Positions 4,473 through 35,250 of a stretch of 64,000 bases of DNA are shown piece by piece. Position numbers and translations under genes: made by a program. The DNA lies in NCBI GenBank assembly GCA_030431975.1, contig JAUIHP010000014.1:38235-102234 (forward strand), given 5' to 3'. Under the pieces are notes generated by a model, which was not told where the DNA came from, did not search any database, and worked only from the letters and a program-made list of their open reading frames with translations. Source of the stretch: a bacterium (lineage in GTDB: Bacteria > Eisenbacteria > RBG-16-71-46 > CAIMUX01). The stretch's first letter is position 1. The number at the start of each line of letters is the position of its first letter.

Positions 4473-5297
4473 CTAGCTTCCGGTGTATCCGATGAAGCGG
4501 TAGAAGCTGATGAGCATCTCACGGCCGTAGAGGTCGAACTGGTCCATGAGGACGCGCATGACGAGCAGGACCATGAAGACACCGATGGCGACCTTGGCCG
4601 GCTGCGAGACGACGAAGACGTTGATCTGCGGTGACGCCCGATTGATGATGCCGAACCCGACGTCGGTCAGAAAGAGCGCGATCAGGGCCGGCGCGGACAG
4701 CTGCACCGCGATAACGAGCACGTCCGCGGAGAGCCGGGCCAGCTCACGAAGAATGGGCGCCGGTCCGTCGGCAAAAGCGGGGAACTCCGTCACCGGCAGC
4801 ACCTCGAAGCTCGTGAAGAATCCTTTCAGAAAGACGAGATGGCCCCCCGCGATGAGAAAGAGAACGATCGCGGTCTGCGTGTAGAGCTGTCCGAACACCG
4901 AAGTCCGTTCCTTGATCTGAAAGACCATGGTCTCGGCCATGTTCGTGCCGCGTTGCGTGTCGACGAGGCGGCCTGCCGCGGAGAAGCCCGCGAAGATAAG
5001 TCCTGAGATCCAACCCAACGTCGCCCCGATGGCGAGTTCCTTGACCAGCAGATAGAAGTAGGGAAGCCCGGTCGGAATCGTGTCCCCGTTCGTCGATCCG
5101 AGAAGGGGCAGCAGAAGAACGATGAACGTAAACGATGTCGCCATCTTGACCGGTCCGGGAACGACCTGTCCTCCGAGAAACGGATTGAAGAAGAGGACGA
5201 GCATGGAACGCGCAAAGACGAGGGCCGCGAGCTGGATCAGCTCAGTGGGCGCGAGTGCGAACCCGAGCGATTGGTACCACTGGTCCAGCAACGTCAA
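4473..5297 (-). CDS. sctT: Type III secretion export apparatus protein SctT (FliR/YscT family)
   Basis: Multi-TM FliR-like sequence. Start re-assigned to TTG at 5297-5295, which overlaps the sctS stop (TTGA) and implies translational coupling; the longer ORF (to 5366) would overlap sctS by 72 bp. Confidence 0.85.
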   Translation of the reverse strand: MTLLDQWYQSLGFALAPTELIQLAALVFARSMLVLFFNPFLGGQVVPGPVKMATSFTFIVLLLPLLGSTNGDTIPTGLPYFYLLVKELAIGATLGWISGLIFAGFSAAGRLVDTQRGTNMAETMVFQIKERTSVFGQLYTQTAIVLFLIAGGHLVFLKGFFTSFEVLPVTEFPAFADGPAPILRELARLSADVLVIAVQLSAPALIALFLTDVGFGIINRASPQINVFVVSQPAKVAIGVFMVLLVMRVLMDQFDLYGREMLISFYRFIGYTGS

Positions 5298-5566
5298 CCG
5301 CCTGCGATCCGGGGAATCAGAGAATAGACCCGCTGAGTGAAAACGACGAGCTGAGAGACCAACCACGGCCCGGTCAGAGCCAAGGCGAGAAACGTGACGA
5401 CGATCTTGGGAACGAAGGTCAGCGTCTGCTCCTGGATCTGCGTCGTGGCCTGAAAGACGGAGATGAGAAGCCCGATGCCGAGACTTGCGATCAACGCCGG
5501 CCCCGAGATGAGAAGGATGAGGACGAGCGTCTCGTTCAGCAGTTTGAAGATGAATCCGGTGTCCAT
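5294..5566 (-). CDS. sctS: Type III secretion export apparatus protein SctS (FliQ/YscS family)
   Basis: 90 aa, two TM helices, typical FliQ sequence (LLISGPALIASLGIGLLISVFQATTQIQEQTLTFVPKI). Confidence 0.92.
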   Translation of the reverse strand: MDTGFIFKLLNETLVLILLISGPALIASLGIGLLISVFQATTQIQEQTLTFVPKIVVTFLALALTGPWLVSQLVVFTQRVYSLIPRIAGG

Positions 5567-5584
5567 GTCACTCTCCTGATCCGG

Positions 5585-6430
5585 CTAGAGATAGCCGAGA
5601 ATCAAACCTTCCACGATGAGGAACCAACCATCGACCAGAACGAAGAGCAGCAGCTTGAAGGGCAGTGCGATTGTCGTCGGTGAGAGCATCATCATTCCAA
5701 GGGCAAGCAGGATGTTCGACACGACCATGTCGATGATGAGGAACGGGATGAAGATGATGAACCCGATCTGGAACGCCTCTTTCAGTTCACTGAGGACAAA
5801 GGCCGGGATCAGTACCTGAAAGCTGCTCGGATCGACCGGTCGGGTCGGATCGTTGGCCAGCCTCTGCGCAAGCTCGACGAAGAGCAGCCGTTCCTTGTCG
5901 TGAGTGTGCACGTCAAGGAAGTCCCGCAAAGGCTCCCGCCCGGTCTTGGCGCCGTCGATCAGAGCTTTCACGTTCTGTTCGCTGAAGATCTTGGCCGAGG
6001 ACTGTCCGTCGAGACCCGTCGCGTCGTAGATCTTCTGTGCCGTCGGGATCATGACGAAGATGGTCAGAACGAAGGCCAGTCCCGTCACGACCTGATTTGG
6101 TGGAATCTGCTGCGTCCCGAGCGCGTTGCGAACGATGGAGAGAACGACCGAGATCTTTACGAACGAGGTCAGCATGATGAGGATGAAGGGCGCGAGAGAG
6201 AGTGCGCCCATGATGACGACGAGCGTGATCGGACTGGACTGGCCGGTCTGCGCGAAGGCCGCCTCTGGGACCGCAAGGAGTACGCAGAGTGCGGCCAGGA
6301 CGGCGGTCCATCGCCCGGCCCGGGCGAGGCCACGGGTCACACTTCGCAGGCCCGCTCCGGACGGAACCTTTGCCGTCTTCGACTGCGATCTATGGACCGA
6401 TTCAGGCCCAATCAGGGCTGGGTTCCGCAT
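5585..6430 (-). CDS. sctR: Type III secretion export apparatus protein SctR (FliP/YscR family) with signal peptide
   Basis: FliP signature regions (PFILIMLTSFVKISVVLSIVRNALGTQQIPPNQV; FQIGFIIFIPFLIIDMVVSNILLALGMMMLSP). Start placed at ATG 6430 with an AGGAG RBS, giving a cleavable signal peptide (AVLAALCVLLAVPEAAFAQ). The ORF extends to 6568 but that N-extension is unlikely. Confidence 0.9.
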   Translation of the reverse strand: MRNPALIGPESVHRSQSKTAKVPSGAGLRSVTRGLARAGRWTAVLAALCVLLAVPEAAFAQTGQSSPITLVVIMGALSLAPFILIMLTSFVKISVVLSIVRNALGTQQIPPNQVVTGLAFVLTIFVMIPTAQKIYDATGLDGQSSAKIFSEQNVKALIDGAKTGREPLRDFLDVHTHDKERLLFVELAQRLANDPTRPVDPSSFQVLIPAFVLSELKEAFQIGFIIFIPFLIIDMVVSNILLALGMMMLSPTTIALPFKLLLFVLVDGWFLIVEGLILGYL

Positions 6431-6443
6431 CCTTTCAGGACTC

Positions 6444-6845
6444 CTATTCCTCGTCCTCCAAGTCCGCAGCTCGTGCTGCGGGCTTGGTGTCTTCCAAAAC
6501 ATCCAACAAACGAACCTGTTGATCCGTGACTCCAAGGACGTACTCGCGCGACCCGGACCGGACGACACAAACGGAACGTCGACCGCCGAGGTGAAGCTGC
6601 TCGACCATCTCCAGTCTTCCCTTGCCGACCAGACGCCCTCCGAGGAACTTCGGAAGGACCCACTTGATCACCGCGTAGATGATGAAGCTGATCAGCGCCA
6701 GATAGAGCACGGTCTGGATCAGGGTTCCGAGCGGATCGATTTCCCGAAGACCCGGACCGAGCGACGACTCGAGAGAATCCGCGCTGACCTGGGCCCAGGC
6801 CGATCCGAAGACCATCGGGGCAATGCCTGTCACCACAATTGCCAT
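6444..6845 (-). CDS. FliO-like single-pass membrane protein between sctQ and sctR (flagellar-type export-gate assembly factor)
   Basis: TM helix (LIQTVLYLALISFIIYAVIKWVL) followed by GRLEMVEQLHLGGRRSVCVVRSGSREYVLGVTDQQVRLLDVL. This matches the FliO pattern (…ERVVVVDV.D.RLVLGVT..QINLL) and FliO's gene position. Start uncertain; the ORF runs to 7079 through a low-complexity region. Confidence 0.6.
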   Translation of the reverse strand: MAIVVTGIAPMVFGSAWAQVSADSLESSLGPGLREIDPLGTLIQTVLYLALISFIIYAVIKWVLPKFLGGRLVGKGRLEMVEQLHLGGRRSVCVVRSGSREYVLGVTDQQVRLLDVLEDTKPAARAADLEDEE

Positions 6846-6978
6846 CACAGTGCGGAGGGTCGCACCGGCGAGGGCGGCGACATCCACGGCGCCTGTAGCG
6901 ATGCTCGAACCGGTGTCGCCAGTCGCGGCTGCGGAGGTTTCCGAAGCGCCGTCCGCAGCGTCTTTCGGGGACCGTGGC

Positions 6979-8412
6979 CTAGGTGAGCTCGGCAATGCGT
7001 ACGCCCAACTCACCGTCGACCTTGACCAGATCTCCGACACCGATGACGCGGTCTTCGACGACCAGGGAAACCGGCGCACTGGGATCCCGTCCCATCTCGA
7101 TTACGGATCCCGGACTCAGCTGAGCCAGTTCACGAAGGGTCAACCGGATCCGGCCGAGCTCGACACGAACGGTGACCGGGGTCTCTTCCGCGACCTGGCG
7201 ACCCGCGCCGGACGTGTCACCGGGCGCCGTATCGCCCGGATGCGTCGACTCCGGATCCGGACCGGTGTTTTGCGAAGTGTCATTCATGATCTTTGCCTCC
7301 GATTCTTCGGCGTGACGACCCGGTACGATCGATTCGATGCGAACGCGCAAGGTCTCCGCGTCGTCCTCGATCTGAGTCTGCAGGCGAACGAGTCCGTCCT
7401 GTGAATGCGCGAGCGGCAACTCGCCGCTCAGGTGTTGGCCGTCCCACTGGAAGTTTCCGGTGTCGAAAAGAAGAATGTCTGTCGGTTCCAGACGCTCGAT
7501 GTCACCGAGGGTGAGGGCCGCGGCTCCCAGTCGTCCCCGAAACTCCACCGGGTAGGATCCAAGGGTTCGGAACCAGTGGTCCGAGCGCGAACGGCGACCC
7601 ATTTGGTCGCCCGCGGAAATCTGTCCGGACTTGCGGGCGTTGCTCAAAGCGCGCCACGGGACGGCCAGACGGAACGGAAGGGAAAGTTCGGCGACGACGA
7701 GAACGCCGGATACGGTGTACCAGTCCTTCTTGCCGCCATTGCCCCAATCCAAAGGAGCGTTTTCGCTGGCAACATCGAGAACGGTGATCGGCATCCACGG
7801 CGCCAATAGCTGCGACCTCTCGGAAACGCCCGCCGCGATTCGCTCGGCAAAGAAGGCGAGCACTCCCTTTTCGACGGTGGAGATAAGGTCGGAAGCGCCG
7901 AGACGTTCCGGTGCGACATCGACGACCGCACCGACGATGGAGCGGACGGCAGCCAAGGGCATTTCGAAAACGGCACGCAGGTCGGGTTGTCCGAGTCCGT
8001 AGTGAACCCGTACGGAGTGCGGTCCTCCGTCCCAGGGATCGGATTCGGCCGGACCGTGTCGACGGATGTGGACGAACTCGTCGACGGAGGACGGCGCGCC
8101 CGAGAGGCCGCCCTGCATCGGAACGGTCATCCCCAGAGTGTCCGCCGTCGTCTCGGGACTCTTGGACGACGGGGCCGTCGAGCTTGCGGCCCGGGAGGCC
8201 AGGCTTGCTTCCGGTCGTTGAAGTCTTTGCAGAGTGATCCCAACCGCTCTACGCAGTTGACGGAAGGCTTCCGGGCCGGGGAGGACCCGCGAAAGCTCCT
8301 GCATGGCGTCGACTTCCGTCCGCGAAAGCTCGGGGATGTCTTCAAAGCGATAAGGCTGGGCGCTCATCGTTGCGGCGGTGTCTCCGCGATGCTCCTTCCA
8401 CGTTACGACCAT
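6979..8412 (-). CDS. sctQ: T3SS cytoplasmic-ring / sorting-platform protein SctQ (FliM/FliN-YscQ family, C-terminal SpoA domain)
   Basis: C-terminal SpoA/FliN motif (TVRVELGRIRLTLRELAQLSPGSVIEMGRDPSAPVSLVVEDRVIGVGDLVKVDGELGVRIAELT). 477 aa; alternative start at 8367. Confidence 0.85.
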   Translation of the reverse strand: MVVTWKEHRGDTAATMSAQPYRFEDIPELSRTEVDAMQELSRVLPGPEAFRQLRRAVGITLQRLQRPEASLASRAASSTAPSSKSPETTADTLGMTVPMQGGLSGAPSSVDEFVHIRRHGPAESDPWDGGPHSVRVHYGLGQPDLRAVFEMPLAAVRSIVGAVVDVAPERLGASDLISTVEKGVLAFFAERIAAGVSERSQLLAPWMPITVLDVASENAPLDWGNGGKKDWYTVSGVLVVAELSLPFRLAVPWRALSNARKSGQISAGDQMGRRSRSDHWFRTLGSYPVEFRGRLGAAALTLGDIERLEPTDILLFDTGNFQWDGQHLSGELPLAHSQDGLVRLQTQIEDDAETLRVRIESIVPGRHAEESEAKIMNDTSQNTGPDPESTHPGDTAPGDTSGAGRQVAEETPVTVRVELGRIRLTLRELAQLSPGSVIEMGRDPSAPVSLVVEDRVIGVGDLVKVDGELGVRIAELT

Positions 8413-8424
8413 GGGTCACAAGCC

Positions 8425-9462
8425 CTAGAGACTATAGTCGGTTCGGCTGCCACGCGAGCGCGAACCGGCCGGGCCGGAAGGGTTTCGGTTCGAGGAGTTT
8501 CCGGCCGTCGGATCCGTGCCGGCGTAGCGCCCGCTGCGGGGATCGTAGTACGGATCCTGGGCGGGGTCCGCGAGCGGATCGGCGTACGGGTCCGCGTGAG
8601 GATCTTCGTCGGGGTTGGACTGACCTTCGCCTTGCGCACCCCCGCCGGAGTTGCGGAAGGCCTCCGCGTCCTGGACCTCGACGCGGACCTCGTTGACTTT
8701 CAAGCCCTGTGACTCCAGCCGGCGCACCAGGTCACCCATCTGGGCTTCGAGTGCGGCCTTGGTCGCGTATTGGCCAACCTCGAAGACGGCCTCCAGGCCC
8801 ATCGGGCCGGAGCTCATCTTGACTCCCATTCCGCCCATGACCGAGCCCTTGAGGTCCATCTGCACTTCCGTCGCGCCGGTGCGGTTCTGGCCGACCCGGA
8901 AGGCTTCGACCATCTTCGACATCACGGTCTTGAGATCGTGCGGAGGAATCGCGTTTCCGTTCTTGGACGGGGCCTGGGCCGACTCCGGCTTTTGGACGTT
9001 CTTGGCGGACTCGGCGGCGGCCGCGGAAGAGTCCGAGTCCTTCGAGGAATCCTCGACTCGGTCTGCCTCTCGCGCACCGTTTCGGGAGTCTGCCTCAGCT
9101 GGGCTGGCTGCGCTGGCCGGGTTCGCGGAGGACGAAGTCGAACGGTGTGACTCGGCCCGGGTCGAAACCTCTTCGGCCGCGCGACTGCCGAGAGCTAGGT
9201 CGAGGTCCGACCCGGAGCCGAGTCCGGCGGGGGAGCCGGACGATCCCGCCGAGAGTCCGTGTGAAAGCGATTTCGAGCCGACCGGCCCGCGAGCGAAACC
9301 GGGGGAGGAACCCGGGCCCTTTCCCGACGTCGAACCTTCGGCTTCGTCCTCTTCGCCGCCGACCAGGAAGTCGTCGAAGCTCTTGCTGCTCTTCTCCTTG
9401 GCGGATTCCGGACGGGGTCGGTCCGGAAGGTTGTGAGGGCGATGATTGTCGATCCGCGTCAT
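8425..9462 (-). CDS. sctP: Needle/hook length-control protein SctP (FliK/YscP family, T3S4 / Flg_hook C-terminal domain); S/G/A/P-rich low complexity
   Basis: C-terminal region (ATEVQMDLKGSVMGGMGVKMSSGPMGLEAVFEVGQYATKAALEAQMGDLVRRLESQGLKVNEVRVEV) resembles the FliK/YscP T3S4 domain; the rest is long and disordered. Start placed at ATG 9462 with a GAGGAA RBS; the ORF extends to 9570. Confidence 0.6.
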   Translation of the reverse strand: MTRIDNHRPHNLPDRPRPESAKEKSSKSFDDFLVGGEEDEAEGSTSGKGPGSSPGFARGPVGSKSLSHGLSAGSSGSPAGLGSGSDLDLALGSRAAEEVSTRAESHRSTSSSANPASAASPAEADSRNGAREADRVEDSSKDSDSSAAAAESAKNVQKPESAQAPSKNGNAIPPHDLKTVMSKMVEAFRVGQNRTGATEVQMDLKGSVMGGMGVKMSSGPMGLEAVFEVGQYATKAALEAQMGDLVRRLESQGLKVNEVRVEVQDAEAFRNSGGGAQGEGQSNPDEDPHADPYADPLADPAQDPYYDPRSGRYAGTDPTAGNSSNRNPSGPAGSRSRGSRTDYSL

Positions 9463-18055: not shown

Positions 18056-19732
18056 TCAACGGCGGCCGGGGATCTCCAGGTGACACAGCGCACAGGAGTA
18101 GTCCCCGGCTTCCAACGCCTTCTCCGGGTCAAAGTCCGGTCCATGCGGGCTGACCGACCAACCTGTTTTCGCGGAGTGGCACTGTAGACAGTCCGTCTGC
18201 TGGTGACACGACGCGCACGCATCCAACCCCGTCCGCGCCGCGTTCGCATGATCCAACAACCACAGCGGCTCCGCATCGTGATACGACCCGGACTGGCTGC
18301 GAGTCGGCGCGATTCCCGACGACTGGTGGCAGTCGCGGCAGAATCCCTCCAGGGAGTGACAATCGACGCAACCCGGATCCCGGGAATTCGCGCTGGCCGC
18401 GTGCCGAACGAGGAAGTTCGGCGGGTGGAACCCCCCGACCGCGTTGGCTGAGGGGAAGTCCGAGCGGTGGCAGTCGATGCAGAAACTCTCGGCATGACAA
18501 ACGGAACAGTCACGATCCCGCATGTCCATGTCGGAATGGTGGTGACGGAACTCCGGCGTGTGATCGAGAGGGATCAACGGGAGAATGGGAAGCCCTTTTG
18601 CCTCGCTCGGTGCGTCGTACATAGCGGCGAAGAGAACGCTGGTTCCCTCTTCATGACAGCCGACGCAATTCGACTTCGTATGGCAGTTCGTGCACCGGGC
18701 CGGGGTCTCATTGGCAACCCGTCCGTGACTCGTCCACCAGTTCGGATCCTCATGGGTGGCCGGGGCGGGCCAGCTTCCCGGTAGATCCTGCACAAGTTCC
18801 GCAACGCGAGTGTCGGAGGACAAAGCCTGAATCGCCGCCACGCCCTCGGCGTTGAAGTGACAACGCTCGCAGCTCTCTTGCGAATGGCAGAACTGACAGG
18901 TGGAGGGATCGTCTCCGTGGTTGTGGAAGAACGACCCAGTTTGATGGGACTCCGGTTGTGGAAGAGACGCGACCCATGAACTCGGACCCTCCGTCTCCAC
19001 CAACGGGTAGTGACACATGCTGCAGTCGTTCTGCGGTTCAAAGTGGTTGGCGAGGTTCTGCTCGTGACACTCGCTGCAGTTGTCCAATGACGCCCGCGCG
19101 ATCGAGTCTACCCTTGGCGCGTCTTCTTGGCCGTCCGTGAGCGGCAGCGCCTGCGGAACCGACGCTCCGCTCGGGCTTTGATGGCAGACCGTGCAGTCGA
19201 GGACGACTCCAGCTTTCTCATCATGAGCTTTGTGATCGAATCGAAGGTTGCTCGTGCGCGGACTGCGCGTCCAGTTGACTTCCCGAAGCGTGTTCCCGTC
19301 ATGGCAGGTGCCGCAGTCCTCGGACTCAACGGTGTGGAGTTCGGGAGTTCGGCCTCTCGGGTTGTGACAGACTTCGCAGGTGGGGAAGGCACCTGCATGC
19401 ACGGAGTGGAGGAACACGTCCTGCGTACCGTCGTTGGCGCCGATGCCGGTGCCTGAGGTTTCGGTCGAAAGCGCGGCCTCTTGCTGCGCGACAGCGTCTC
19501 CGACGAGCCCGATTGGGAAGAAAAGTAGAAGAGCGAGGAAAACGGCAGTCTTGATGAAGGTCCGAAAGGACTGGGGCGGAACGATGAACTCGGACGGAAC
19601 CATGAACTCGGACGGGACCATGAACTCGGACGGAGCCAGTGACTCGGACGGAGCCGGCACGAGGGGGCATGCGGGCGTGTTCGTGGGCATAGGGCGCCCC
19701 GACTTCCGATGATTGAAAGCGAGATTCTTCAT
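18056..19732 (-). CDS. Multiheme c-type cytochrome, 16 CxxCH motifs
   Basis: 16 CxxCH counted (CEVCH, CGTCH, CTVCH, CSECH, CSMCH, CQFCH, CERCH, CTNCH, CVGCH, CSVCH, CIDCH, CVDCH, CRDCH, CASCH, CLQCH, CALCH). N-terminal hydrophobic signal/anchor; N-terminal PSEFMV x4 repeat. Confidence 0.9.
   Translation of the reverse strand: MKNLAFNHRKSGRPMPTNTPACPLVPAPSESLAPSEFMVPSEFMVPSEFIVPPQSFRTFIKTAVFLALLLFFPIGLVGDAVAQQEAALSTETSGTGIGANDGTQDVFLHSVHAGAFPTCEVCHNPRGRTPELHTVESEDCGTCHDGNTLREVNWTRSPRTSNLRFDHKAHDEKAGVVLDCTVCHQSPSGASVPQALPLTDGQEDAPRVDSIARASLDNCSECHEQNLANHFEPQNDCSMCHYPLVETEGPSSWVASLPQPESHQTGSFFHNHGDDPSTCQFCHSQESCERCHFNAEGVAAIQALSSDTRVAELVQDLPGSWPAPATHEDPNWWTSHGRVANETPARCTNCHTKSNCVGCHEEGTSVLFAAMYDAPSEAKGLPILPLIPLDHTPEFRHHHSDMDMRDRDCSVCHAESFCIDCHRSDFPSANAVGGFHPPNFLVRHAASANSRDPGCVDCHSLEGFCRDCHQSSGIAPTRSQSGSYHDAEPLWLLDHANAARTGLDACASCHQQTDCLQCHSAKTGWSVSPHGPDFDPEKALEAGDYSCALCHLEIPGRR
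19583..19655. repeat. Tandem 18-bp repeat x4 (catgaactcggacggRRcc) encoding PSEFMV repeats in the cytochrome N-terminus
   Basis: Read directly from the sequence at 19583-19655. Confidence 0.8.
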
Positions 19733-21318
19733 CGGCTCCTCCGGTCCGCGTGTCCGTAGCTGAAGCGGTACTCGATAGCCGCGCCGACCCGGAGTTGGTT
19801 CCAGTCTGCGTAGTCCGGTCGATTGTCATAGGACAAACGGTGCCAACCCGCTGAAGAGCGAAGGGAGACGTCCTGCCAACGGATTCCGCCTTCGACGCCA
19901 CCACCCCAGATCCAGTCGGTTCCGACTCGCGACTCCCGCGTCTGCTGCGTCATCAGCAGGTGAACGCCCAAGTGACCGGAGCGGTCGCCGGAGCGGCCTC
20001 CGAAGATGCGACGGGCCGAGGTCGAGGCGCGCGTTTCCGCGGCGCCGAAACCGACATCGACTCGGAAGTCCGCGCCAAGGTTCCAGGCCGGCGTGACGTA
20101 GTCCGAACCCACGTCGACCCACCATCCGTCGTCCCGATCCGGGACGGCCAGGGTCTCTTCTCCCGAGTCTTCGTAGGATCGGTAGGTCGCTGCGCCCCGG
20201 AGGGACAGCGTTCGATCCGGTCGGGAACTGGGAGTCGGAACCGACCATGTTGCAGCCAGCCGTCCCTGTGTGAATCCTACCGGTGAGAACGCTTCCCAGA
20301 TCGTCCAGAGATCGAAGTACGGACGCCGGTAACGTCCCTCGGCGACCATGTTCAGTCGCTGGTGAACTCGCGCCTGCAGACGTGCGCGAGCATCGTTCCA
20401 ACGACCAACGGCGAAGTCGTAGTCGGTGGAACCGTCTATGCTGAAGACGCCGTGGCGCAGCCGCAGGTCGAGAGCACCGCGTTCGGAATAGAGCGCACCC
20501 CGGTCGGTTCGGATCTCCCGTTGATAGAGAGCGACCAACGTGGCGAACTCGGCTGGGCGAAGGTAGAGTTCTCCGCCGATGAGGTCGGCGTCGTCGTTCG
20601 GCGCCCGCTCGTCGATTTCCTCGAGCAGGAAGCCGGTCAGGGGCTGACCCAGGCCGCGGACGAGGGAACGGCCTCCGTAGACTTCACCTTCGATACGAGG
20701 GTGCGCCCGCCAAAGTACGGAGCCACCATCGAACTCGTACCAACCGAGTCCGGCCCGTTTGGCCTGGCGCCCGGCGCGCATCCTCAGGTTCCAGCGATCG
20801 AGTTCGACATAGCCGGAAATGAAGTCGAAGTCCTGTTGGCTTTTCGGCCAAAGCGCATCGCTGCCGGTTCGGTTGCGCAGATGGACTCGACCGGACAGTC
20901 CCTGTATGTCCGTCCACCCCGTCATTTGCAGCTCGTGACTGACCGGCAGGGCCGACTCGACCTCTCCCGGTGTGTACCAGTAACAGGAGTCGCCCGGAAC
21001 GCAGGTAACGGCGGTTCCGTCCTCGAGAAGGCGGCGAGTGTCCTCTCCCTCGACTTCGCTTTCGGGGATGGCTTGGCGGTAGAGAGGGCGAGACTCGACG
21101 AACGCGACATGGCTCCGCAAGGTCCCCCGGAATCCCGAAGCCCACACGTCATCTGTGTGGGCGGAGGCAAGCCAGGCAGAGGCGATGATCAGCCCCAGAG
21201 CCACCGGACGTGGCCAAACCGAACCGGGCCAAACCGAACCCGTCACATGAGACGTCGGAAGGGAAGGCACCTGCCGGCGAGACTCCGGGCGATGAGAGAC
21301 CCATCGATGAAGGGTCAT
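19729..21318 (-). CDS. Putative outer-membrane beta-barrel (porin partner of the multiheme cytochromes, MtrB/OmbB-like role)
   Basis: Signal peptide (RPVALGLIIASAWLASA); long alternating hydrophobic/polar strands (e.g. LRVGAAIEYRFSYG). Sandwiched between two multiheme cytochrome genes. Start placed at 21318 to avoid a 66-bp overlap; the ORF extends to 21381. Confidence 0.5.
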   Translation of the reverse strand: MTLHRWVSHRPESRRQVPSLPTSHVTGSVWPGSVWPRPVALGLIIASAWLASAHTDDVWASGFRGTLRSHVAFVESRPLYRQAIPESEVEGEDTRRLLEDGTAVTCVPGDSCYWYTPGEVESALPVSHELQMTGWTDIQGLSGRVHLRNRTGSDALWPKSQQDFDFISGYVELDRWNLRMRAGRQAKRAGLGWYEFDGGSVLWRAHPRIEGEVYGGRSLVRGLGQPLTGFLLEEIDERAPNDDADLIGGELYLRPAEFATLVALYQREIRTDRGALYSERGALDLRLRHGVFSIDGSTDYDFAVGRWNDARARLQARVHQRLNMVAEGRYRRPYFDLWTIWEAFSPVGFTQGRLAATWSVPTPSSRPDRTLSLRGAATYRSYEDSGEETLAVPDRDDGWWVDVGSDYVTPAWNLGADFRVDVGFGAAETRASTSARRIFGGRSGDRSGHLGVHLLMTQQTRESRVGTDWIWGGGVEGGIRWQDVSLRSSAGWHRLSYDNRPDYADWNQLRVGAAIEYRFSYGHADRRSR

Positions 21319-23603
21319 GATCCCTCCAGGATGCGTTGCCGGTACTTGGCCGGGGAGGTCAGCATGTGACACTCGACGCAAGTCTTCGCATCGGTCTGCC
21401 GCTCTGCGACATGTTCGGAGATTCCCGTGTGGCAGGTCTGGCAGTACTCCGGTTGGGGGTGCAGCATGGAGACAATGTTTCGGTTATGACAGTCCGCGCA
21501 GTGGAAGTGCGGATTCTCGACGGAGTGCGCCGCCTGGATGTTGTATCCCGTGTGGCAGCTCGAGCAGTTGCGCCCTTCTTCGTGATGAGAGTCGTGACAT
21601 CCCGAGCAGTCTGCGGCGTCTGCAGAAACCGCCATCGTCAGTGACTGCGTATGGCATTCCTCACAGGCGACCGAGGCGTGACGAGCATGGGACCAGGCGA
21701 CGTCCCGCTCGGGTTGATTGCTTCCGAACTCGTTGCGAACGGAAACGGCCACGGTCATGGTTGTCGGTTTCTCCGGGAGTCGTTCCATCCCGGAATGACA
21801 ACGTGCACAAGCCCGGCTACCGGCGCTCTGCTGCAGGCCGTCGCCGTCGCCCGAGTTCCTCCGTTCCGCCACGGCTTTGTACTCGGCGAAGGTTTGGACG
21901 TGATGGCAGCGGTGACAATCCGTGTCGGAAACGAAGGTTTTTCCGTGGTCGGGATCGAAGGTCTTCCCGTCCTCCTGGAAGAGTTCGGCCGGTGAGTGAC
22001 ACTCGGAACAATCGGTGTCGACCGCGACGTGGGCGGCGTGCGGAAACGCGCTACCAGAACCGAGTCCGCGAGAGCCGGAACCGACTGATCCCATGCCGCC
22101 GGAGGCGACGCGGGTCGAGCGGGAAGCAACGCCAGTCGGGCCGGAGGCAGCTGCTCCGGCGCCGCTGCGGAAGGGGTCCACGTCGACCCCGTAGTGGCAG
22201 TGCATGCACTCGTTCTCCGCGACGGCAGGACCGAGTGCCGGGCGTCTCGGTGGAATGCGTCCGGCAAGGCGATAGGCCTCTTCGGTAGACTCGATGGCAT
22301 CGCGCAGGATCGCATCCGAGGTCGTGAGGTTGTGCACTCCTCCACCCTTGTCGATCCAGTCCACGAGCTCCCGGGCCCGCTCGAGAGCGGCTGTGACTTC
22401 CGTCGACGCGTTCGAACCGATGGCGTCCCCGGCCGTCTGTATGTACCTGATGCTGGCTTCGGTTCGCTGCGTCATGCCTGCGGCCCAACCCGCGGAAAGG
22501 CCGTCGAACTTCTGTCCGTGACAGCTGACGCAGCTTTCGGTCAGCCCCAGGAGGTGTCCTTCGCTTCCCTTGGCTTCGTGACAAGAGCGGCACCCGAGTC
22601 GGGCCAGGAACTTGACCGACGGTTGTGCGGAGGCGTCACCCGGGATCAAACCGGCGAAGAGAAGTTGTTGAGGCTCGTGGTAGGTGGAGTCGATCTCCGC
22701 GGAGTCGAACTCGTCCTCTGTGTGGCAGGTGCTGCAATCCAGGGAAACCGCATCGAGAAGGTTGCCGACCTCATGGGCAATCTCGGTGTGGCACCGCGCA
22801 CAGGAAGGGCCTTGTCCTCCGCTGTAGTGTGCGCGGTGGATGTCGGCTCCGGCCGTCCCCGGCTCATACCGAAGCTGAGCCCGTTCAAGAGGCTGACTCG
22901 TTCCGGCGGAGAGATGACACTCCGCGCAGGATGCGGGATCCACCGCGCCCGTTCCACGAACGACATCGAAGTGGCACTGCAGGCAGGACAAGCCGCGCTC
23001 GGTCACGGTCGCATGATTGATCGGTGGTCGGCCGATGCCGGCGGGCGCCTGGTGCAACGCGACTCCGTGACAGGTTCCGCAGTCGGACTCGGGGAGAACA
23101 GCCAGCCGAGCCGTCGTATTCGACCGGGTGTCCCGGCGTCCCGTGGCCTTGGCGCCGGTCGCAGTTCCTGTCCCGGTTCCTGCGACCTCCTCGTTGTTCC
23201 AGAAGGTGTCACCGTGACAAAGCACGCATGAACTCGTCGAGAGTCCAAGATCGATGTCTCCGCTGGAGTGCGTATGACAAGCGGAACAGTCGAGGTGCTC
23301 CTGGCCTTCGGCCCCCGGGTGCGAGATGTGGGCGAAACGTACGCCGCCCCAGACCACTTCCTCGCTCAACTCGCTCGTCGCGTGACACTGGGTGCAGGTC
23401 GTTCCGGATGCGTGTCCAGTGATGTTCGAGGCAAAGTCCGTGCTGTGGCAATCGCTGCACGCCAGATCGGCGTGCGGACGCGGCGACACCGGCGCGGCAC
23501 GATCCAGACCCGCTGTGTGATCGCCGTCCTTTGAGTTTTCGGAGCAAGCCAACAAACCCAAAGCGAGGACGGCCGCAGCGACGGATGTCCCCTGCAGTCT
23601 CAT
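21315..23603 (-). CDS. Multiheme c-type cytochrome, 21 CxxCH motifs, probable lipoprotein
   Basis: 21 CxxCH motifs counted; signal peptide with lipobox-like AVLALGLLACSEN. Confidence 0.9.
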   Translation of the reverse strand: MRLQGTSVAAAVLALGLLACSENSKDGDHTAGLDRAAPVSPRPHADLACSDCHSTDFASNITGHASGTTCTQCHATSELSEEVVWGGVRFAHISHPGAEGQEHLDCSACHTHSSGDIDLGLSTSSCVLCHGDTFWNNEEVAGTGTGTATGAKATGRRDTRSNTTARLAVLPESDCGTCHGVALHQAPAGIGRPPINHATVTERGLSCLQCHFDVVRGTGAVDPASCAECHLSAGTSQPLERAQLRYEPGTAGADIHRAHYSGGQGPSCARCHTEIAHEVGNLLDAVSLDCSTCHTEDEFDSAEIDSTYHEPQQLLFAGLIPGDASAQPSVKFLARLGCRSCHEAKGSEGHLLGLTESCVSCHGQKFDGLSAGWAAGMTQRTEASIRYIQTAGDAIGSNASTEVTAALERARELVDWIDKGGGVHNLTTSDAILRDAIESTEEAYRLAGRIPPRRPALGPAVAENECMHCHYGVDVDPFRSGAGAAASGPTGVASRSTRVASGGMGSVGSGSRGLGSGSAFPHAAHVAVDTDCSECHSPAELFQEDGKTFDPDHGKTFVSDTDCHRCHHVQTFAEYKAVAERRNSGDGDGLQQSAGSRACARCHSGMERLPEKPTTMTVAVSVRNEFGSNQPERDVAWSHARHASVACEECHTQSLTMAVSADAADCSGCHDSHHEEGRNCSSCHTGYNIQAAHSVENPHFHCADCHNRNIVSMLHPQPEYCQTCHTGISEHVAERQTDAKTCVECHMLTSPAKYRQRILEGS

Positions 23604-24463
23604 CTAAAGATCGCCCATATGACGAGTACGGCCAGGGTCAGGCCAATGGCGATGGCACTGAGTCCGATGGTCGCAGCAAACATGTAGAGCCAACGAGGCG
23701 GCGGAGCGACTTCCTTCTCAGCAAGCCTTCCTTCACGCTTCAGACGTTCATACTCCAGAGGATGTTCTTCCTCGATGTACTGATGGGTGGCCCGCCCGGT
23801 GAAGATGACCAGATCCAGGGGGAACTTGTCCGGGCGAAGCTGTCCGTTGAAGAAGTGAATCGTGAACTTGAAGACGAGGGCGAGAAGCGCTTCCAGTCCG
23901 TGAATGATGATGGCCACGTTGAAGATCCAGCCTGGGAAGAAGCGACTGAAGAACTCCGGAAACCATAGAAGAAGGCCGGTGCCGCCGATGACGGTCGTTC
24001 CCCAGGTCACCGCCCAGTAGTCGAACTTCTCCAGATAGCTGTAGCGCTCGAACTTCGGCATCGGAGCGCGCCCGAAGAAGTACCGGAACATCTGCGCCAT
24101 GTCCTTGCCGTCCTTGGCCTTTGGAATCATGGAGTTCGGTCCGGTGAAGAACTCCTTTTTGTCCTCGGCGTGGGCGAACTTCCAGATCAAAGAAGCGAAG
24201 TGAAGGAAGGCATAGGTAAAGGTGATGACGGCGCAGCATCGGTGGATGATCGCGGCGGTCCCGATTCCGCCGTGCATTCGTACGAGAAAGTGTGCCCAGG
24301 GTTCGTTGAGGAAAAGCAAGGGGAGCCCGGTCATGACCAGTCCGAAGAACGAGACGATGATCATGAGGTGCAGGATCCGCTCGAGCCTCCCGAAACGCTT
24401 GATGTAGGGCCCCGATCCCCGGTCCGAGGACGAAAGCGCGTTGGCCGCAGGGTGATGCATCAA
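23600..24463 (-). CDS. Membrane di-heme cytochrome b subunit (Ni_hydr_CYTB / FdnI-like, PF01292-like)
   Basis: 287 aa, 4-5 TM helices with conserved His (HLMIIV…, HGGIGTAAIIH, HFASLIW, IIIHGLEAL). Ends overlap the flanking multiheme cytochrome genes by 4 bp. Confidence 0.75.
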   Translation of the reverse strand: MMHHPAANALSSSDRGSGPYIKRFGRLERILHLMIIVSFFGLVMTGLPLLFLNEPWAHFLVRMHGGIGTAAIIHRCCAVITFTYAFLHFASLIWKFAHAEDKKEFFTGPNSMIPKAKDGKDMAQMFRYFFGRAPMPKFERYSYLEKFDYWAVTWGTTVIGGTGLLLWFPEFFSRFFPGWIFNVAIIIHGLEALLALVFKFTIHFFNGQLRPDKFPLDLVIFTGRATHQYIEEEHPLEYERLKREGRLAEKEVAPPPRWLYMFAATIGLSAIAIGLTLAVLVIWAIFR

Positions 24464-25953
24464 GGAGTGTCTCCCTTCGCGGACTCATCGTGGTTTCGCC
24501 GAATGAACCGGGCGCTTCGCTCGATCACGCTGCGTGACAACCAGAGCAAGGTGTGGATGCCAAAGAACGTGAAGACACACGCCAGCAGTGTCCGCATCGC
24601 GAGGTACGCGTAGTAGAGAATCGGGTAGTTCTCGCGATCGTTGCGGTTGCCGTGTGAATGATAGAGGACGAAATTCGTGTTCGCTCCTGCGTGGCACTCG
24701 CCGCAGGTGTCGACGAGGTTGGCCGGGTGGACGGTCGACTTCGGGTCATCCGCGGACAGGTTGGCGTGGGCGGTGTGACAGTCGCTGCACTTGGCGCCAA
24801 GCGGTCCGCCCAGCCGGGTGATCTTGCCGTGGTGGGTTTGATCATAGGTGGCGTAAAGCTCTTCGTGACAAGAGCCGCACTCTTCAACCACATCAGCGCG
24901 CCACGCCTCGTCCGGTGCGACGACCCCGTGAGAGGAATGGCAACTCGTGCACACCGGCGCCTCGTGTTCCGCTTCGGGGTTGGCTTCCCGTAGGGCCTTC
25001 CCGTGAGCGCTCGCCTCGACGACCTCGAGTACTCCCAGATGACAGTCTCCGCACGTCGCCATGACGTTGTTCCGGTGGACCGAGGAACGCTCGTCCACCG
25101 AGGGAAGAATGAGGTGCGGGCGGTGACAGTCGCTGCACGTTGCCGATACGGTGAGACCGGAGTTCTCTATCGCCAGGCCATGCACGGTTTCGTGATACTG
25201 CGTGGCTGCGTGCGCCGCAACGCTGTCCTCCGGGTCGCTGAAGTAGGCTTCGATGATTCGGGGATCCTCGTGGCACTCGCTACAGAGTGCCGCCTCGTTG
25301 AGTGGGTGAATCGGTGACTCCCGATCGCTGGCTGGAAGAATGCGGTGCACCGAGTGGCATCGCGCACAGTCGGGCGTGTCGGCGCCCTCGACGGTGCCGA
25401 TCCCGTCGTTCAGGACGTCGTTCAGGCGATCGTCCGAGGCGCCGTTCGGTTCGCCGCCTCTTCCGCCTGAGGAACTGTTTCCCGCGGGTTCGGTCCGACC
25501 GGTGAATCCCGGGCCGTGGACGGAGGCGTGCCACAGCGTCTGCTGATCCTCGTGGCAGTCGGCACAGGCCGCCGTCGACGTGTTCGGCTGGTGCGGGTAG
25601 GCATCGTCATAGCCCGAATGGCAGGACGTGCAAGAGAGCGAGTCGTGCGCCGAGCCGACCAGATGGGAGTCCGGCACGAGCAGAAGCGCCTCGGCCTCGC
25701 GGGACTCGCCTTTGCCGACCAGAAACTCGGCGTCCCCATGACAGCGATTGCAGTCGACCACCTGGGCATGAGCCGGACGAGTCAGGGGGGTGTTTGCCAG
25801 GCCCGGCCAGCCCAGGAGGTCTACCAAACCCACAAGGACTACGAGACCCAGAAAGAGAAGGATCGCGGTGGGGGGCGCGACCCTGGACGGGTACAGCCTC
25901 CTTGATGTCTGCCCGGTCGGAGTACGGCGTCGGAGCCTAGGACGAAGCCACAT
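24460..25953 (-). CDS. Multiheme c-type cytochrome, 11 CxxCH motifs, N-terminal membrane anchor
   Basis: 11 CxxCH motifs; N-terminal TM (AILLFLGLVVLVGLVDLLGW). First gene of the cytochrome operon. Confidence 0.9.
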   Translation of the reverse strand: MWLRPRLRRRTPTGQTSRRLYPSRVAPPTAILLFLGLVVLVGLVDLLGWPGLANTPLTRPAHAQVVDCNRCHGDAEFLVGKGESREAEALLLVPDSHLVGSAHDSLSCTSCHSGYDDAYPHQPNTSTAACADCHEDQQTLWHASVHGPGFTGRTEPAGNSSSGGRGGEPNGASDDRLNDVLNDGIGTVEGADTPDCARCHSVHRILPASDRESPIHPLNEAALCSECHEDPRIIEAYFSDPEDSVAAHAATQYHETVHGLAIENSGLTVSATCSDCHRPHLILPSVDERSSVHRNNVMATCGDCHLGVLEVVEASAHGKALREANPEAEHEAPVCTSCHSSHGVVAPDEAWRADVVEECGSCHEELYATYDQTHHGKITRLGGPLGAKCSDCHTAHANLSADDPKSTVHPANLVDTCGECHAGANTNFVLYHSHGNRNDRENYPILYYAYLAMRTLLACVFTFFGIHTLLWLSRSVIERSARFIRRNHDESAKGDTP

Positions 25954-26727
25954 CTTCTACGAGACCTCCGTTTTCAGATTCAAGAGGAGTTTCAGGGGTT
26001 CCCGGAGATGCGGCCATACGAAGATGTGCTTATTGAGTCCGAAATTCCATTGTGGGGCAGGATACGCCCCCGTAGCGAAGGGTGCTAGCGGACCGTAACC
26101 GAGGAAGCGGTAGTGATTGAGCGAGGGGTTCTCGTTCTCCGCAAGGCGCGACGACGACGGAGCTGACCCAAACGTAGGTCTCTCCACGCAAATGCCCGAG
26201 CTGAGGTATCAAAATGCCCACCTCATCCGTCCAGGAACGAGTTCGGCGGTTTGTGCTCTGGTTGGTGATCCATCCGGAAACGCCGCCCCCGATGGCCGGA
26301 TGGCTCGAGGGGAACGCCCACAACAGGGCGGTAGCATTCATTCGGGGGCGAGGCCGTTTCAACCCCGGTGGATGCGACCCTGCATCGTGTGACGGTGATC
26401 GGGGGCGGCATTTCCGGGTCTGGCGCCCCCTATCGAAGACTGCTTCGAGGCATCCGAGTCGAACCTCTCCGGGATTTCCATTCTCTCGGCGGTCGGCTTC
26501 ACAGCGTCGCCCTCTCCTGAATGCCGCCCGGAGCCCTTCCCTAGAATAAGTATGCGCGATGCTTATCCCACGATGGATCAGACTTTCTAAACCTGTATCA
26601 CCCGCTGCGTCGAGCCAGTCCTTATGAAGCCTCGAGAAAGGTCTCGGGGAACGAACGATACCGGCAGGTCCGGCCGACGCCGTCCGCTCGGAGTGGCTGT
26701 CAAAGGCCGGACAAGGGGGACCGAGGA

Positions 26728-28527
26728 ATGAAGCTAGGGTTGGTATTGGCGATGTCAGCGGCTGTGGCCGTCCCGGCGTGGTCGGCGAACGAGTACACGC
26801 AGACGCACCATGTAACCTACATGGGAGCGGGTGGAGTCGAGGTCGAGGGTGAGCGGTGCGGTGTCGTCGCCCCGGACCTCGAGGAGCAGCAGCGGGTCCA
26901 CGGTCAGATCCAGGAATGGATCGACGTCTTCGGGGACGGCGGCGTCCACAGCGCTGTGACGACGATCCCGGTCGCTTTCCACGTCGTCCAGGCCAACAAC
27001 GGTTCGTACAATGTTTCCGACCAGCAGATTCAGGACCAGATTGCGGTCCTGAACGCAGCCTATGCCGGGACCAACTTCCAGTTCTCCCTGGCCAGCATCG
27101 ACCGGACCCGGAACAACCGCTGGACCCGCCACAGTCCGGGCTCGTCCGCCGAGGCCGAGATGAAATCGGCGTTGGCCATTGACCCGACCACGACCCTGAA
27201 CTTCTACACCGGAAACCTGGGAGGCGGTCTCCTGGGCTACGCCACATTCCCGTGGATGTACGCCGAGGACAGTTTCATGCACGGCGTCGTCTGCCTCTAC
27301 TCGTCTCTGCCGGGCGGTACGGCTGCTCCGTACGACGAAGGGGACACGGGTACGCACGAGGTCGGACACTATCTCGGTCTCTACCACACGTTCCAGGGGG
27401 GGTGTAGCGGTGACGGCGACTTCGTCGGCGATACCCCGGCGGAAGCAAGCCCCGCTTCCGGATGTCCGGTCGGGCGGGATACCTGCGCCGGAGGAGGTCC
27501 GGACCCGATTCACAACTTCATGGACTACACGACCGACGCCTGCATGTTCGAATTCACGAACGGCCAGTCCGCTCGCATGGATGCTGCCGTTGCAGCGTAC
27601 AAGCCCGGGCTGGGTGGTGGTGGTTGCACGGAAACGGTACCGGCGGCGCCGTCGGCCCTCTCCGCGAACGCAATCAGCGACAGCCGGATCGACCTCAGTT
27701 GGAGTGACAACAGCAGCAACGAGGATGGATTCATCATCTCCCGTGGCGGCAGCGACATCGCGACGGTCGGCGCCGGGGTCACCAGCTACAGCGACAACGG
27801 CCTCACCTGCGAGACGAACTACTCCTACGCCGTCCGCTCTGAGAACTGTGCCGGGGAATCTGCGAGTTCCGGTTCGTCATCGGCCATGACCGGAACCTGT
27901 CCGGCGGGACCGACGGTTCACGTTTCTGCAATCGACCTCTCCGTTTCCTCCCAGGGACCCTGGCGCAGGGGTGAGGGCTACGTCACCGTCGTCGACCAGA
28001 ACGGTAGTCCGGCAGCCGGGATCAACGTCAGCGTCAGCTGGAGCGGATCAACCACCGGCAGCAGCAACGCGACGACCGCAGCCGACGGACGGGCTTTCGT
28101 GGAGTCGCCTCGTTGTCGGTGCAACAGTAACTGCTTCACTGCCAGCGTGACCAACCTCAGCGGAGCCGGTGTGACGTACGACTCGGGTTCGAACGTCGAG
28201 ACCACCGACGAGACCGGGAATGCCTGCGGCGCCCGTATTCAGCCGGCAACGGCAGGCCTGTCCGTCTCCAGCAGTCCGGAGCCGTTCCGGTCCGGAGCAC
28301 GGATCACCTACGCCACGCCTTCCGCCGGAGCGGTTCGGTTGGCCGTCTACGACGTGAGTGGACGTCAGATTCGGGTCCTCGTCGATCAAGGCCTCTCGGC
28401 GGGAACGCACTCGACCTCTTGGGACGGTCGGGATGATCGCGGCCTGGAAGTGGCGGCCGGAGTCTACTTCTATGCCCTGCAGGTGGGCGACGAGTCAGTC
28501 ATTCACAGGACCCTGCGTATTCGATGA
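26728..28527 (+). CDS. Secreted zinc metalloprotease, M43 pappalysin/ulilysin-like, + FN3 domain + Por/T9SS C-terminal sorting domain
   Basis: Signal peptide; HEVGHYLGLYHTF zinc site and DTP; central fibronectin-III-like region. C-terminus …ARITYATPSAGAVRLAVYDVSGRQIRVLVDQGLSAGTHSTSWDGRDDRGLEVAAGVYFYALQVGDE… is typical of the TIGR04183-type T9SS CTD. Confidence 0.85.
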   Translation: MKLGLVLAMSAAVAVPAWSANEYTQTHHVTYMGAGGVEVEGERCGVVAPDLEEQQRVHGQIQEWIDVFGDGGVHSAVTTIPVAFHVVQANNGSYNVSDQQIQDQIAVLNAAYAGTNFQFSLASIDRTRNNRWTRHSPGSSAEAEMKSALAIDPTTTLNFYTGNLGGGLLGYATFPWMYAEDSFMHGVVCLYSSLPGGTAAPYDEGDTGTHEVGHYLGLYHTFQGGCSGDGDFVGDTPAEASPASGCPVGRDTCAGGGPDPIHNFMDYTTDACMFEFTNGQSARMDAAVAAYKPGLGGGGCTETVPAAPSALSANAISDSRIDLSWSDNSSNEDGFIISRGGSDIATVGAGVTSYSDNGLTCETNYSYAVRSENCAGESASSGSSSAMTGTCPAGPTVHVSAIDLSVSSQGPWRRGEGYVTVVDQNGSPAAGINVSVSWSGSTTGSSNATTAADGRAFVESPRCRCNSNCFTASVTNLSGAGVTYDSGSNVETTDETGNACGARIQPATAGLSVSSSPEPFRSGARITYATPSAGAVRLAVYDVSGRQIRVLVDQGLSAGTHSTSWDGRDDRGLEVAAGVYFYALQVGDESVIHRTLRIR

Positions 28528-34038: not shown

Positions 34039-35250
34039 CTAGAAGGAAACGCGACGGATCCGGTGGTTGTACCAATCGGCGATGTAGAGATTGCCTTCCG
34101 CGTCGAACTCGAGTCCGATCGGGCGGTGGAGTTGGGCTTCCGTGGCCGGTCCCCCGTCACCGCTGAATCCGGCGTCGCCGGTTCCGGCGACCGTCTCGAT
34201 GATTCCGGTTTCGACGTCCACGGCGCGGACCCGATTGTTCAGCTCGTCCGCAATATAGATGCGCCCGTCCGGGCCGAAGGCCAGATCCTTCGGGTAGTTG
34301 AGCGATGCATCCGTCGCGAGCCCGCCGTCACCGGCGTAAGCTCCGGTACCGTTGCCAGCGAAGGTCTCGATGGTGTTTGCGATGAGGTCGACACGTCGGA
34401 TCCGGTGGTTGTTCGTGTCACTGATGTAGAGCCGCCACTGGTCGTCGAAGACGATGGATCCACCCGGCGGAGGGTTGCCTCCGGCTGGCAGGTTGATCAT
34501 GGCGTCAAGTGGGTCCCCGCCATCACCCCCGTAGCCCTGCTGGCCGTTCCCGACCACCGTTTCGATGAGGTCGGTCGCGGAGGAAATTCGGCGTACGCGT
34601 TGGTTACGTTGATCGAGAACGAAGAGATCGTCATCCGGGCCGAGGATCGTGCACTGCGGCTGGCTGAGGATGGCGTCGCGACTCGGCCCGCCGTCACCCC
34701 CGAACCCAGCTCCGGCTCCGCAGACGACGAGAACGCGCTCGGTGTTCGGATCGTAGGTGCGAAGCTTGTGGTTGTGCCAGGCCGTCAAAAGGATGATGCC
34801 GTTCGGAAGTTCGATGAGCTGGGTCGGGTGGTTGAGGTGAACGTCCGTTCCCAAGGCCCCCGGAGCTTCGAGATCGGACAGGTCGTCAGGTCCATCTCCG
34901 ATGAAGTCGGTACCGATCACCGTTCGGAGCGTGTTGTTCTCGACCAGTCGGACCCGGTGGTTGTTCCAATCGAGTATGTAGGCGTCCCCGTTGGAGACGA
35001 ACTGGACATCGATCGGCCAATAAAGAAAGGTTTCCTCGAGCGGCAGCCCATCTCCGTTGAACCCGGCTTGACCCGTCCCGATCCAGGTGCAGATCTGGCC
35101 AGGCGAATCACAATCCGGCTCCGGCTCGGGGACGACCGTGTCGTCGCTGTCCGAGCTGCATCCGGACAAGAGTCCGAAGCTCAGAACAAGGGAGCACAGA
35201 AGAAAGGGCCGAACGCTATTTCGCGTGCGTCGGACGAAGTTCGTTTGCAT
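34039..35250 (-). CDS. NHL-repeat beta-propeller lipoprotein (paralog B)
   Basis: Lipobox (LSGCSSDSDD); same NHL repeat architecture as the upstream paralog. Confidence 0.8.
   Translation of the reverse strand: MQTNFVRRTRNSVRPFLLCSLVLSFGLLSGCSSDSDDTVVPEPEPDCDSPGQICTWIGTGQAGFNGDGLPLEETFLYWPIDVQFVSNGDAYILDWNNHRVRLVENNTLRTVIGTDFIGDGPDDLSDLEAPGALGTDVHLNHPTQLIELPNGIILLTAWHNHKLRTYDPNTERVLVVCGAGAGFGGDGGPSRDAILSQPQCTILGPDDDLFVLDQRNQRVRRISSATDLIETVVGNGQQGYGGDGGDPLDAMINLPAGGNPPPGGSIVFDDQWRLYISDTNNHRIRRVDLIANTIETFAGNGTGAYAGDGGLATDASLNYPKDLAFGPDGRIYIADELNNRVRAVDVETGIIETVAGTGDAGFSGDGGPATEAQLHRPIGLEFDAEGNLYIADWYNHRIRRVSF

Follow-up and report, generated by a model that had tools for sequence, protein, structure and literature searches.

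Through porin-cytochrome conduits, diderm bacteria carry out mineral respiration and metal corrosion and make electrical contact with electrodes or partner cells; to our knowledge, the conduits described so far come almost entirely from Proteobacteria and Desulfobacterota. Gemmatimonadota and Eisenbacteria are largely uncultured phyla that abound in soils, sediments and wastewater. In the MtrCAB, MtoAB and PioAB systems (PDB 6R2Q) a large barrel is genetically coupled to a dense bis-His multiheme cytochrome and tied to an inner-membrane quinol dehydrogenase, with the core of MtoAB and PioAB reduced to the barrel and one cytochrome. In the Geobacter Pcc (OmaB-OmbB-OmcB) and Ext clusters the order is multiheme cytochrome, porin-like protein and second multiheme cytochrome, and Cbc-type inner-membrane quinol oxidases serve the conduit. 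Here we describe five contiguous minus-strand genes, designated A to E, at positions 18056-25953 of a 64-kb stretch of an Eisenbacteria genome (contig JAUIHP010000014.1; this whole stretch is referred to as the window), for which the same job is proposed. We put at roughly 0.7 the probability that this operon encodes a complete envelope-spanning porin-cytochrome conduit assembled from protein families that are not detectably related to Mtr or Pcc. An earlier note on this DNA had drawn the parallel to both systems, and the parallel is one of functional analogy, not of detectable homology. To judge from the sequences, the principle would be that of the known conduits, and what appears to be new is the protein families and the layout, namely a two-part outer-membrane unit served by long inner-membrane-anchored heme chains.

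The operon begins with A (24460-25953; 497 residues, 11 CxxCH motifs), an undecaheme c-type cytochrome with an N-terminal signal or anchor, and continues with B (23600-24460; 286 residues, no CxxCH), a di-heme cytochrome b of the FdnI/HydC type, C (21315-23603; 762 residues, 21 CxxCH), which bears the lipobox LLAC expected from its earlier description as a lipoprotein, D (19729-21318; 529 residues, no CxxCH), a predicted outer-membrane β-barrel, and E (18056-19732; 558 residues, 16 CxxCH), a hexadecaheme cytochrome that has a Sec-type signal but lacks a lipobox. Counting of motifs reproduced the previously reported total of 48 CxxCH (11 + 21 + 16), and every cysteine of A, C and E falls within one of them. 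This clustering is far beyond chance, because a scan of the open reading frames (ORFs) of the 64-kb window revealed no ORF of at least 80 residues outside the operon with even two CxxCH. The same five genes were called independently on the source contig (Logan ERR3428548), and the gene coordinates given in the earlier note were confirmed. The 4-nt overlaps that it mentions are present at three junctions (ATGA at B/C, C/D and D/E), the A/B junction being a 1-nt overlap (TGATG). GGAGG-type ribosome-binding sites precede both D and E. Read from these junctions, A to E form a translationally coupled operon.

The barrel is the element that sets the module apart. An AlphaFold2 model of D built from a 45-sequence alignment (mean predicted local distance difference test score, pLDDT, 84.3; predicted TM-score, pTM, 0.76) comprises a signal-peptide helix followed by 24 long β-strands, as counted by DSSP on this one model, so that D, already suspected to be an outer-membrane barrel, is now confidently predicted to be a large one of ~24 strands. 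Foldseek placed FimD at rank 1 and MtrB at rank 4, all with TM-scores of ~0.4, and the best-aligned structures belong to 22-26-strand classes that accommodate polypeptide (FimD, TonB-dependent receptors, MtrB), while 18-strand Occ channels align with D over only ~280 of 480 residues; as modeled, D has no close structural relative. At the sequence level, D has no Pfam or NCBIfam match at E ≤ 0.01, the family profile retrieves nothing at E ≤ 10 from the PDB sequences (6R2Q chain B included), and none of 45 family members matches PF11854 (MtrB_PioB) even at E ≤ 1. Assignment of D to the MtrB/PioB family (PF11854, TIGR03509) thus finds no sequence-profile match. Two features typify the family: one N-terminal loop holds the invariant pair Cys106-x5-Cys112 (MtrB has an N-terminal CxxC instead), and strands 14 and 15 are joined by a highly conserved PFFELWTIWGAFSPVGF loop. 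By these sequence comparisons D founds an unnamed barrel family.

Exhaustive scanning of 1.84 billion representatives recovered 648 sequences of the D family at E ≤ 1e-3, and 205 with the threshold tightened to E ≤ 1e-30; nearly all are 480-510 residues long, which marks the family as discrete on sequence grounds. D-like genes occur in 310 loci of species-representative genomes, and the best 80 of these are the related loci compared throughout this work. Nearly all of the 80 are from Gemmatimonadota, with some from Eisenbacteria, and they originate from marine sediment, soil, lakes and sludge; the D protein of the window has no more than 46% identity to any other sequence, and its organism is a divergent relative. 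We found no prior description of this barrel-cytochrome module in Gemmatimonadota in the literature. A large survey of marine Gemmatimonadota mentions only three MtrABC operons together with FeGenie hits (PMC11316326), and the metagenome-assembled genome (MAG) 'Ca. Carthagonibacter metallireducens', which is one of our related loci (L044), was named from a hydrogenase argument and not from its cytochromes.

Wherever the sequence of a related locus extends past D (77 loci), the next gene, on the same strand, is E-like. Among the 74 complete E-like ORFs, 57 encode 16 hemes, 12 that form a subclade encode 12 hemes each, and the other five encode 9, 13 or 14. Alignment of 37 E sequences revealed that all 16 CxxCH motifs are invariant and are matched by exactly 16 other invariant histidines, because of which every heme of E is predicted to be bis-His coordinated, as expected for an electron-transfer wire without an open catalytic site. 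The soluble part of E holds one heme per 29.8 residues, a density as tight as that of MtrA-type wires (~33 residues per heme, as cited in PMC5566968), and its C-terminal half consists of five repeats of a di-heme unit (HxxHG...CxxCHx4CxxCH). Homologues of E start with a Sec-type N-terminus that nearly always lacks a lipobox and after which FPHxxH is conserved, and comparison of E with solved structures gave no match beyond c3/c7 fragments. E would be an obligate partner of D, and we propose it as the trans-outer-membrane wire. The 12-heme proteins of the short subclade (~315-324 residues), which includes 'Ca. Benthicola marisminoris', align with the window E over its C-terminal, repeat-bearing half only; short E genes were seen at loci L013, L016, L020, L029, L035, L036, L041, L045, L049, L051, L052, L060 and L074.

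At the inner membrane, A and B have the features of a known class of quinol oxidases. B scores 32.4 bits against the Pfam family Ni_hydr_CYTB (prokaryotic cytochrome b561; cutoff 30.1), and its best NCBIfam match is TIGR01583, formate dehydrogenase gamma (E = 2e-12). It has five hydrophobic transmembrane (TM) helices, with histidines in TM1, TM2 and TM4 (two in TM4), and H31, H73, H87, H187 and H202, all within hydrophobic helices, are at least 95% conserved among 29 homologues. A, with 35.7 residues per heme and only generic c7/c3/MtrC-domain matches in Pfam, ends in one TM helix (residues 455-473) whose His467 is kept in every homologue, nine split and 20 fused. Counting the helix of A as TM1, the pair has six TM helices with histidines in TM1, TM2, TM3 and two in TM5, the arrangement described for Geobacter CbcL (histidines in TM1-3 and two in TM5; bioRxiv 10.1101/2021.04.15.440034, the CbcBA paper). 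A-like and B-like proteins are joined in one ORF of ~950 residues, with 19 hemes and a Ni_hydr_CYTB domain, at 20 of the 29 related loci. The CbcL/MtoC/MtrH family spans 3-23 hemes and 15 phyla (PMC6295460), and the fused relatives lie within that range. A+B combine the features of this family, a multiheme c domain and a six-TM di-heme b with the FdnI/HydC-like histidine pattern, and share with CbcBA the two-gene split and the C-terminal TM helix on the c subunit. The heme counts differ, with 11 in A, nine in CbcL and seven in CbcA; B is only narrowly above the Ni_hydr_CYTB threshold, and the likeness to CbcL is drawn from the described pattern and from the generic FdnI and Ni_hydr_CYTB models. 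Because of the A-B fusions, which act as a Rosetta stone, and the published breadth of the CbcL/MtoC/MtrH family, the data support A+B as a CbcL-type quinol:cytochrome c oxidoreductase split over two genes, or an enzyme working in the opposite direction, with A the likely periplasmic arm and B the membrane part. The quinol-oxidising entry point surmised in the earlier note is strengthened by this pattern and by the 20 fusions.

Relatives of C with 20-21 hemes (n = 13) conserve all 42 motif cysteines and 19 further histidines at 90% or above. Because these relatives start with a TM helix and a NapC/NirT module that scores above the Pfam threshold (31.5 and 36.6 bits, cutoff 24.1), their sequences mark them as inner-membrane-anchored and periplasm-facing. 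C itself gave no match to PF03264 (NapC/NirT/CymA) at E ≤ 0.01 and has the lipobox in place of the TM anchor. The immediate upstream neighbor of D is, in many loci, a gene for a 19-heme cytochrome fused to cytochrome b; in another clade it is a gene for a protein of 8-9 hemes, in some cases a lipoprotein, whose sequence aligns with the C-terminal third of C. The large cytochromes around D have ~35 residues per heme, and their long heme chains could span the periplasm. Since the large D-adjacent cytochromes of relatives are anchored in the inner membrane, C is probably a lipid-tethered periplasmic bridge and not a surface cytochrome like OmcB or MtrC, and E is therefore the sole candidate for the outer-membrane cytochrome.

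Set beside the described conduits, the module differs from each of them. Relative to the Mtr-type systems, the barrel has ~24 strands (by DSSP on one model) where MtrB has 26, the partner cytochrome has 16 hemes where MtrA-type cytochromes have 10, and no MtrC-type surface lipoprotein is found in the module. E does not match the MtrA/DmsE/PioA model TIGR03508 (cutoff 192 bits, ten CxxCH), which only one of the 37 family members reaches, at E = 0.0055; A reaches it at 52.9 bits and has 11 hemes rather than 10. Identity with the four-domain MtrC/OmcA lipoproteins finds no support in full-length matches to MtrC structures, of which there were none, and E lacks a lipobox; A, C and E match only the isolated heme domain PF22113, at 42-49 bits. 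From the Pcc and Ext clusters the module is set apart by their descriptions: the Pcc cytochromes have 8 and 12 hemes, those here 21 and 16, and the Pcc lipoprotein cytochrome is extracellular, whereas the C family is inner-membrane-anchored in relatives. The GSU2203-family decaheme model was reached by A only, at 31.9 bits against a cutoff of 325, and Pfam and NCBIfam searches gave no match to Geobacter-specific families.

The clusters PCC3 and PCC4 of Fe(II)-oxidising Proteobacteria likewise combine a non-Mtr porin, heme-rich low-complexity cytochromes and a b-type inner-membrane protein (PMC5566968). In these clusters, delineated by bioinformatics (He et al. 2017), the median heme number of the periplasmic cytochrome is 21. 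They are found mostly in Proteobacteria, and their inner-membrane protein has five TM helices and two WX3HX13H motifs and is ferric-reductase-like, not FdnI-like; the extracellular cytochrome of PCC3 has a median of 34 hemes (PMC5566968), and the porins of both clusters were compared with D by description only. Clusters of large secreted multiheme cytochromes also occur in Desulfovibrio ferrophilus (DFE_0448-0451 and DFE_0461-0465). Those clusters have β-propellers and no porin, and their authors saw no porin-cytochrome conduit in them, whereas the module described here is defined by its barrel, so that we reject identity with them. FeGenie reports DFE hits widely among Gemmatimonadota MAGs (PMC11316326), and some of these hits may reflect A, C or E.

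From the anatomy of the operon and its synteny, we infer extracellular electron transfer by A-E. A+B would oxidise quinol at the inner membrane, C, as a lipid-anchored 21-heme chain, would relay the electrons through the periplasm, and E, a 16-heme all-bis-His wire in or on the ~24-strand barrel D, would take them across the outer membrane, where insoluble or non-permeant partners (for instance Fe(III) or Mn(IV) minerals, humics, electrodes or other cells) would accept them. We likewise infer that E occupies D, where in the cell C resides, which way the electrons flow and what the extracellular partner is. Several points weigh against it. The conduit function is read from sequence, predicted fold and synteny, and the insertion of E into D is argued from synteny and analogy. 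The model of E from the 37-sequence alignment is poor (pLDDT 59.5, pTM 0.43) and was not used for shape or fit, the strand number of D comes from DSSP only, and the likeness of D to MtrB stops at their being large barrels, with a TM-score of ~0.4. Within the 64-kb window we saw no surface lipoprotein cytochrome and no type II secretion, pili or nanowire genes. We also do not know of Gemmatimonadota as metal respirers. Lastly, D and E of this genome have unusual N-terminal extensions of 40-58 residues ahead of the hydrophobic cores of their signal peptides, which homologues lack and in which in-frame tandem repeats sit (minus strand; 19577-19652 in the 5' end of E, 18 bp × 4.2, encoding PSEFMV three times; 21212-21240 in the 5' end of D, 15 bp × 1.9, encoding GSVWP twice); the annotated starts nonetheless have good ribosome-binding sites and ATGA coupling.

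The chain from A+B through C to E could also run in reverse. Inward conduits have been proposed for MtoAB-MtoC/CymA and PioAB, and a barrel with one cytochrome and no surface lipoprotein is closer to MtoAB and PioAB than to MtrCAB. Under inward uptake, the cell would draw electrons from Fe(II), Mn(II), a cathode or a partner cell, and A+B would act as a quinone reductase feeding the quinone pool. Proteins of the CbcL/MtoC/MtrH type occur in Fe(III) reducers and Fe(II) oxidisers without a distinguishing sequence feature (PMC6295460), and iron reduction and oxidation were judged indistinguishable from annotation in the Gemmatimonadota survey (PMC11316326). The window, though, contains nothing that would tie the operon to carbon fixation or a high-potential acceptor chain, and the NapC-type and CbcL-type quinol dehydrogenases found together in related loci are typical of reducers, albeit not exclusive to them, and on balance we regard inward uptake as unlikely. 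A redox network confined to the periplasm, of the Hmc/Tmc/Qrc kind or acting as a capacitor, with D as a co-transcribed solute porin importing a substrate, fares worse and strikes us as quite improbable. Matches to HmcA (NF045713) are far under its 400-bit cutoff, with none for E and weak ones for six of the 37 family members (best E = 4e-5); no Hmc structure was matched by E, and Pfam and NCBIfam searches found neither HmcB-F-like genes nor FeS, NrfD-like or catalytic subunits in the operon. D, with ~24 strands, is larger than the 18-strand Occ channels, and its linkage to E in 77 of 77 loci, together with the ATGA coupling, would be hard to explain for a generic porin.

Enzymes of the nitrogen and sulfur cycles, of the NrfA, HAO or octaheme tetrathionate reductase types, are also common among multiheme proteins, and weak sub-threshold matches of the NrfH, NrfB and NapC type in A could be taken to point that way. 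The earlier note had named two findings that would refute its reading, a D product that does not fold as a transmembrane barrel and cytochromes that class as NrfA- or HAO-type enzymes, and the results point the other way on both: D is predicted to be a barrel, A, C and E contain neither CxxCK nor any other atypical motif, the best NrfA match is at E = 0.27, HAO and octaheme tetrathionate reductase give no matches, and each heme of E is matched by an invariant distal histidine (16 in all). A catalytic role of this kind is effectively excluded, and membership of any of these families is rejected.

Electron transfer through the outer membrane by a conduit thus being the reading we favor, a narrower form of it can be stated for D and E themselves. 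They may be an independently evolved minimal two-protein conduit, present in hundreds of species, in which the 16-heme, all-bis-His E threads the ~24-strand D and fills the roles of MtrA and MtrC alike, its electrons coming straight from periplasm-spanning quinol oxidases that carry 19-21 hemes and are anchored in the inner membrane, without a soluble shuttle; we offer this version tentatively and consider its chances to be somewhat below even. If it is true, Gemmatimonadota, a major phylum of soils and sediments, would be a large overlooked guild of electroactive bacteria. With this module, Gemmatimonadota and Eisenbacteria would possess their own family of conduits, one that searches with FeGenie or Mtr markers miss because neither the barrel nor the cytochrome matches existing models. 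A profile of D and E would serve as a specific and easily deployed metagenome marker of the potential for extracellular electron transfer, and the combination of long inner-membrane-anchored heme chains with a two-part outer-membrane unit presents a testable alternative design for crossing the envelope.

Many related loci carry a gene pair downstream of E that the window lacks, comprising a ~400-residue protein with four CxxCH in class-I cytochrome c/cbb3-type domains and a nonaheme cytochrome of ~420-460 residues. The pair lies at 11244-13717 in L011, with equivalents in L012, L013, L016, L019-L023 and L029 and also at L034-L036, L038, L043, L045 and L051, and it may link to an oxidase or another acceptor branch. 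Locus L035 (CAXMRU010000218.1) is labelled Akkermansiaceae and has a full Gemmatimonadota-type set (21-heme, 11-heme, 19-heme-plus-b fusion, D and 12-heme E) in a layout nearly identical to that of L016; it is probably a mis-binned contig.

Adjoining the module is F (16813-18030, plus strand), a 405-residue outer-membrane protein with full-length homology to the dicarboxylate channel DcaP (PDB 6eus, E = 2.3e-6). It had been described as a second porin-like protein immediately upstream, of which the adjacency is correct and the position is not, F being on the plus strand, convergent with E and downstream of it, with 25 nt between the stop codons. A counterpart of F is absent from all 80 related loci, because of which we do not count it as part of the conduit; its opposite strand and its DcaP-like character are further features by which F as a second conduit porin was rejected. 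On the other side of the operon, 775 nt without a gene call on the source contig (25954-26727) separate A from a divergent M43 peptidase gene, and the promoter or regulatory region of the operon is presumed to lie there. A promoter scan found no sigma-70 consensus in this gap, and scanning of the whole 64-kb window, the gap included, gave no Rfam match. An ORF at 26030-27247 (405 residues, minus strand), Arg/Pro-rich and without a gene call on the source contig, is probably spurious.

The divergent gene (26728-28527, plus strand) encodes a secreted M43 metallopeptidase with fn3/Ig domains, and 35638-37512 (plus strand) encodes a secreted FG-GAP/ASPIC protein. Both products have type IX secretion C-terminal domains (Por_Secre_tail/FlgD_ig-like), which fits a host of the FCB group (Gemmatimonadota-like). 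Three NHL-repeat/six-bladed β-propeller proteins are encoded 10-25 kb from the operon (34039-35250 and 40688-41920, minus strand; 43851-46298, plus strand); six-bladed propellers also occur within the D. ferrophilus DFE cytochrome clusters, possibly by coincidence. Downstream of the operon region, a flagellar export and basal-body cluster (FliR, FliP, FliN, FliK-like, FliI ATPase, FliH and FliF) occupies 4473-15313 (minus strand), and a FIST-domain protein and a histidine kinase are encoded at 49-2433.

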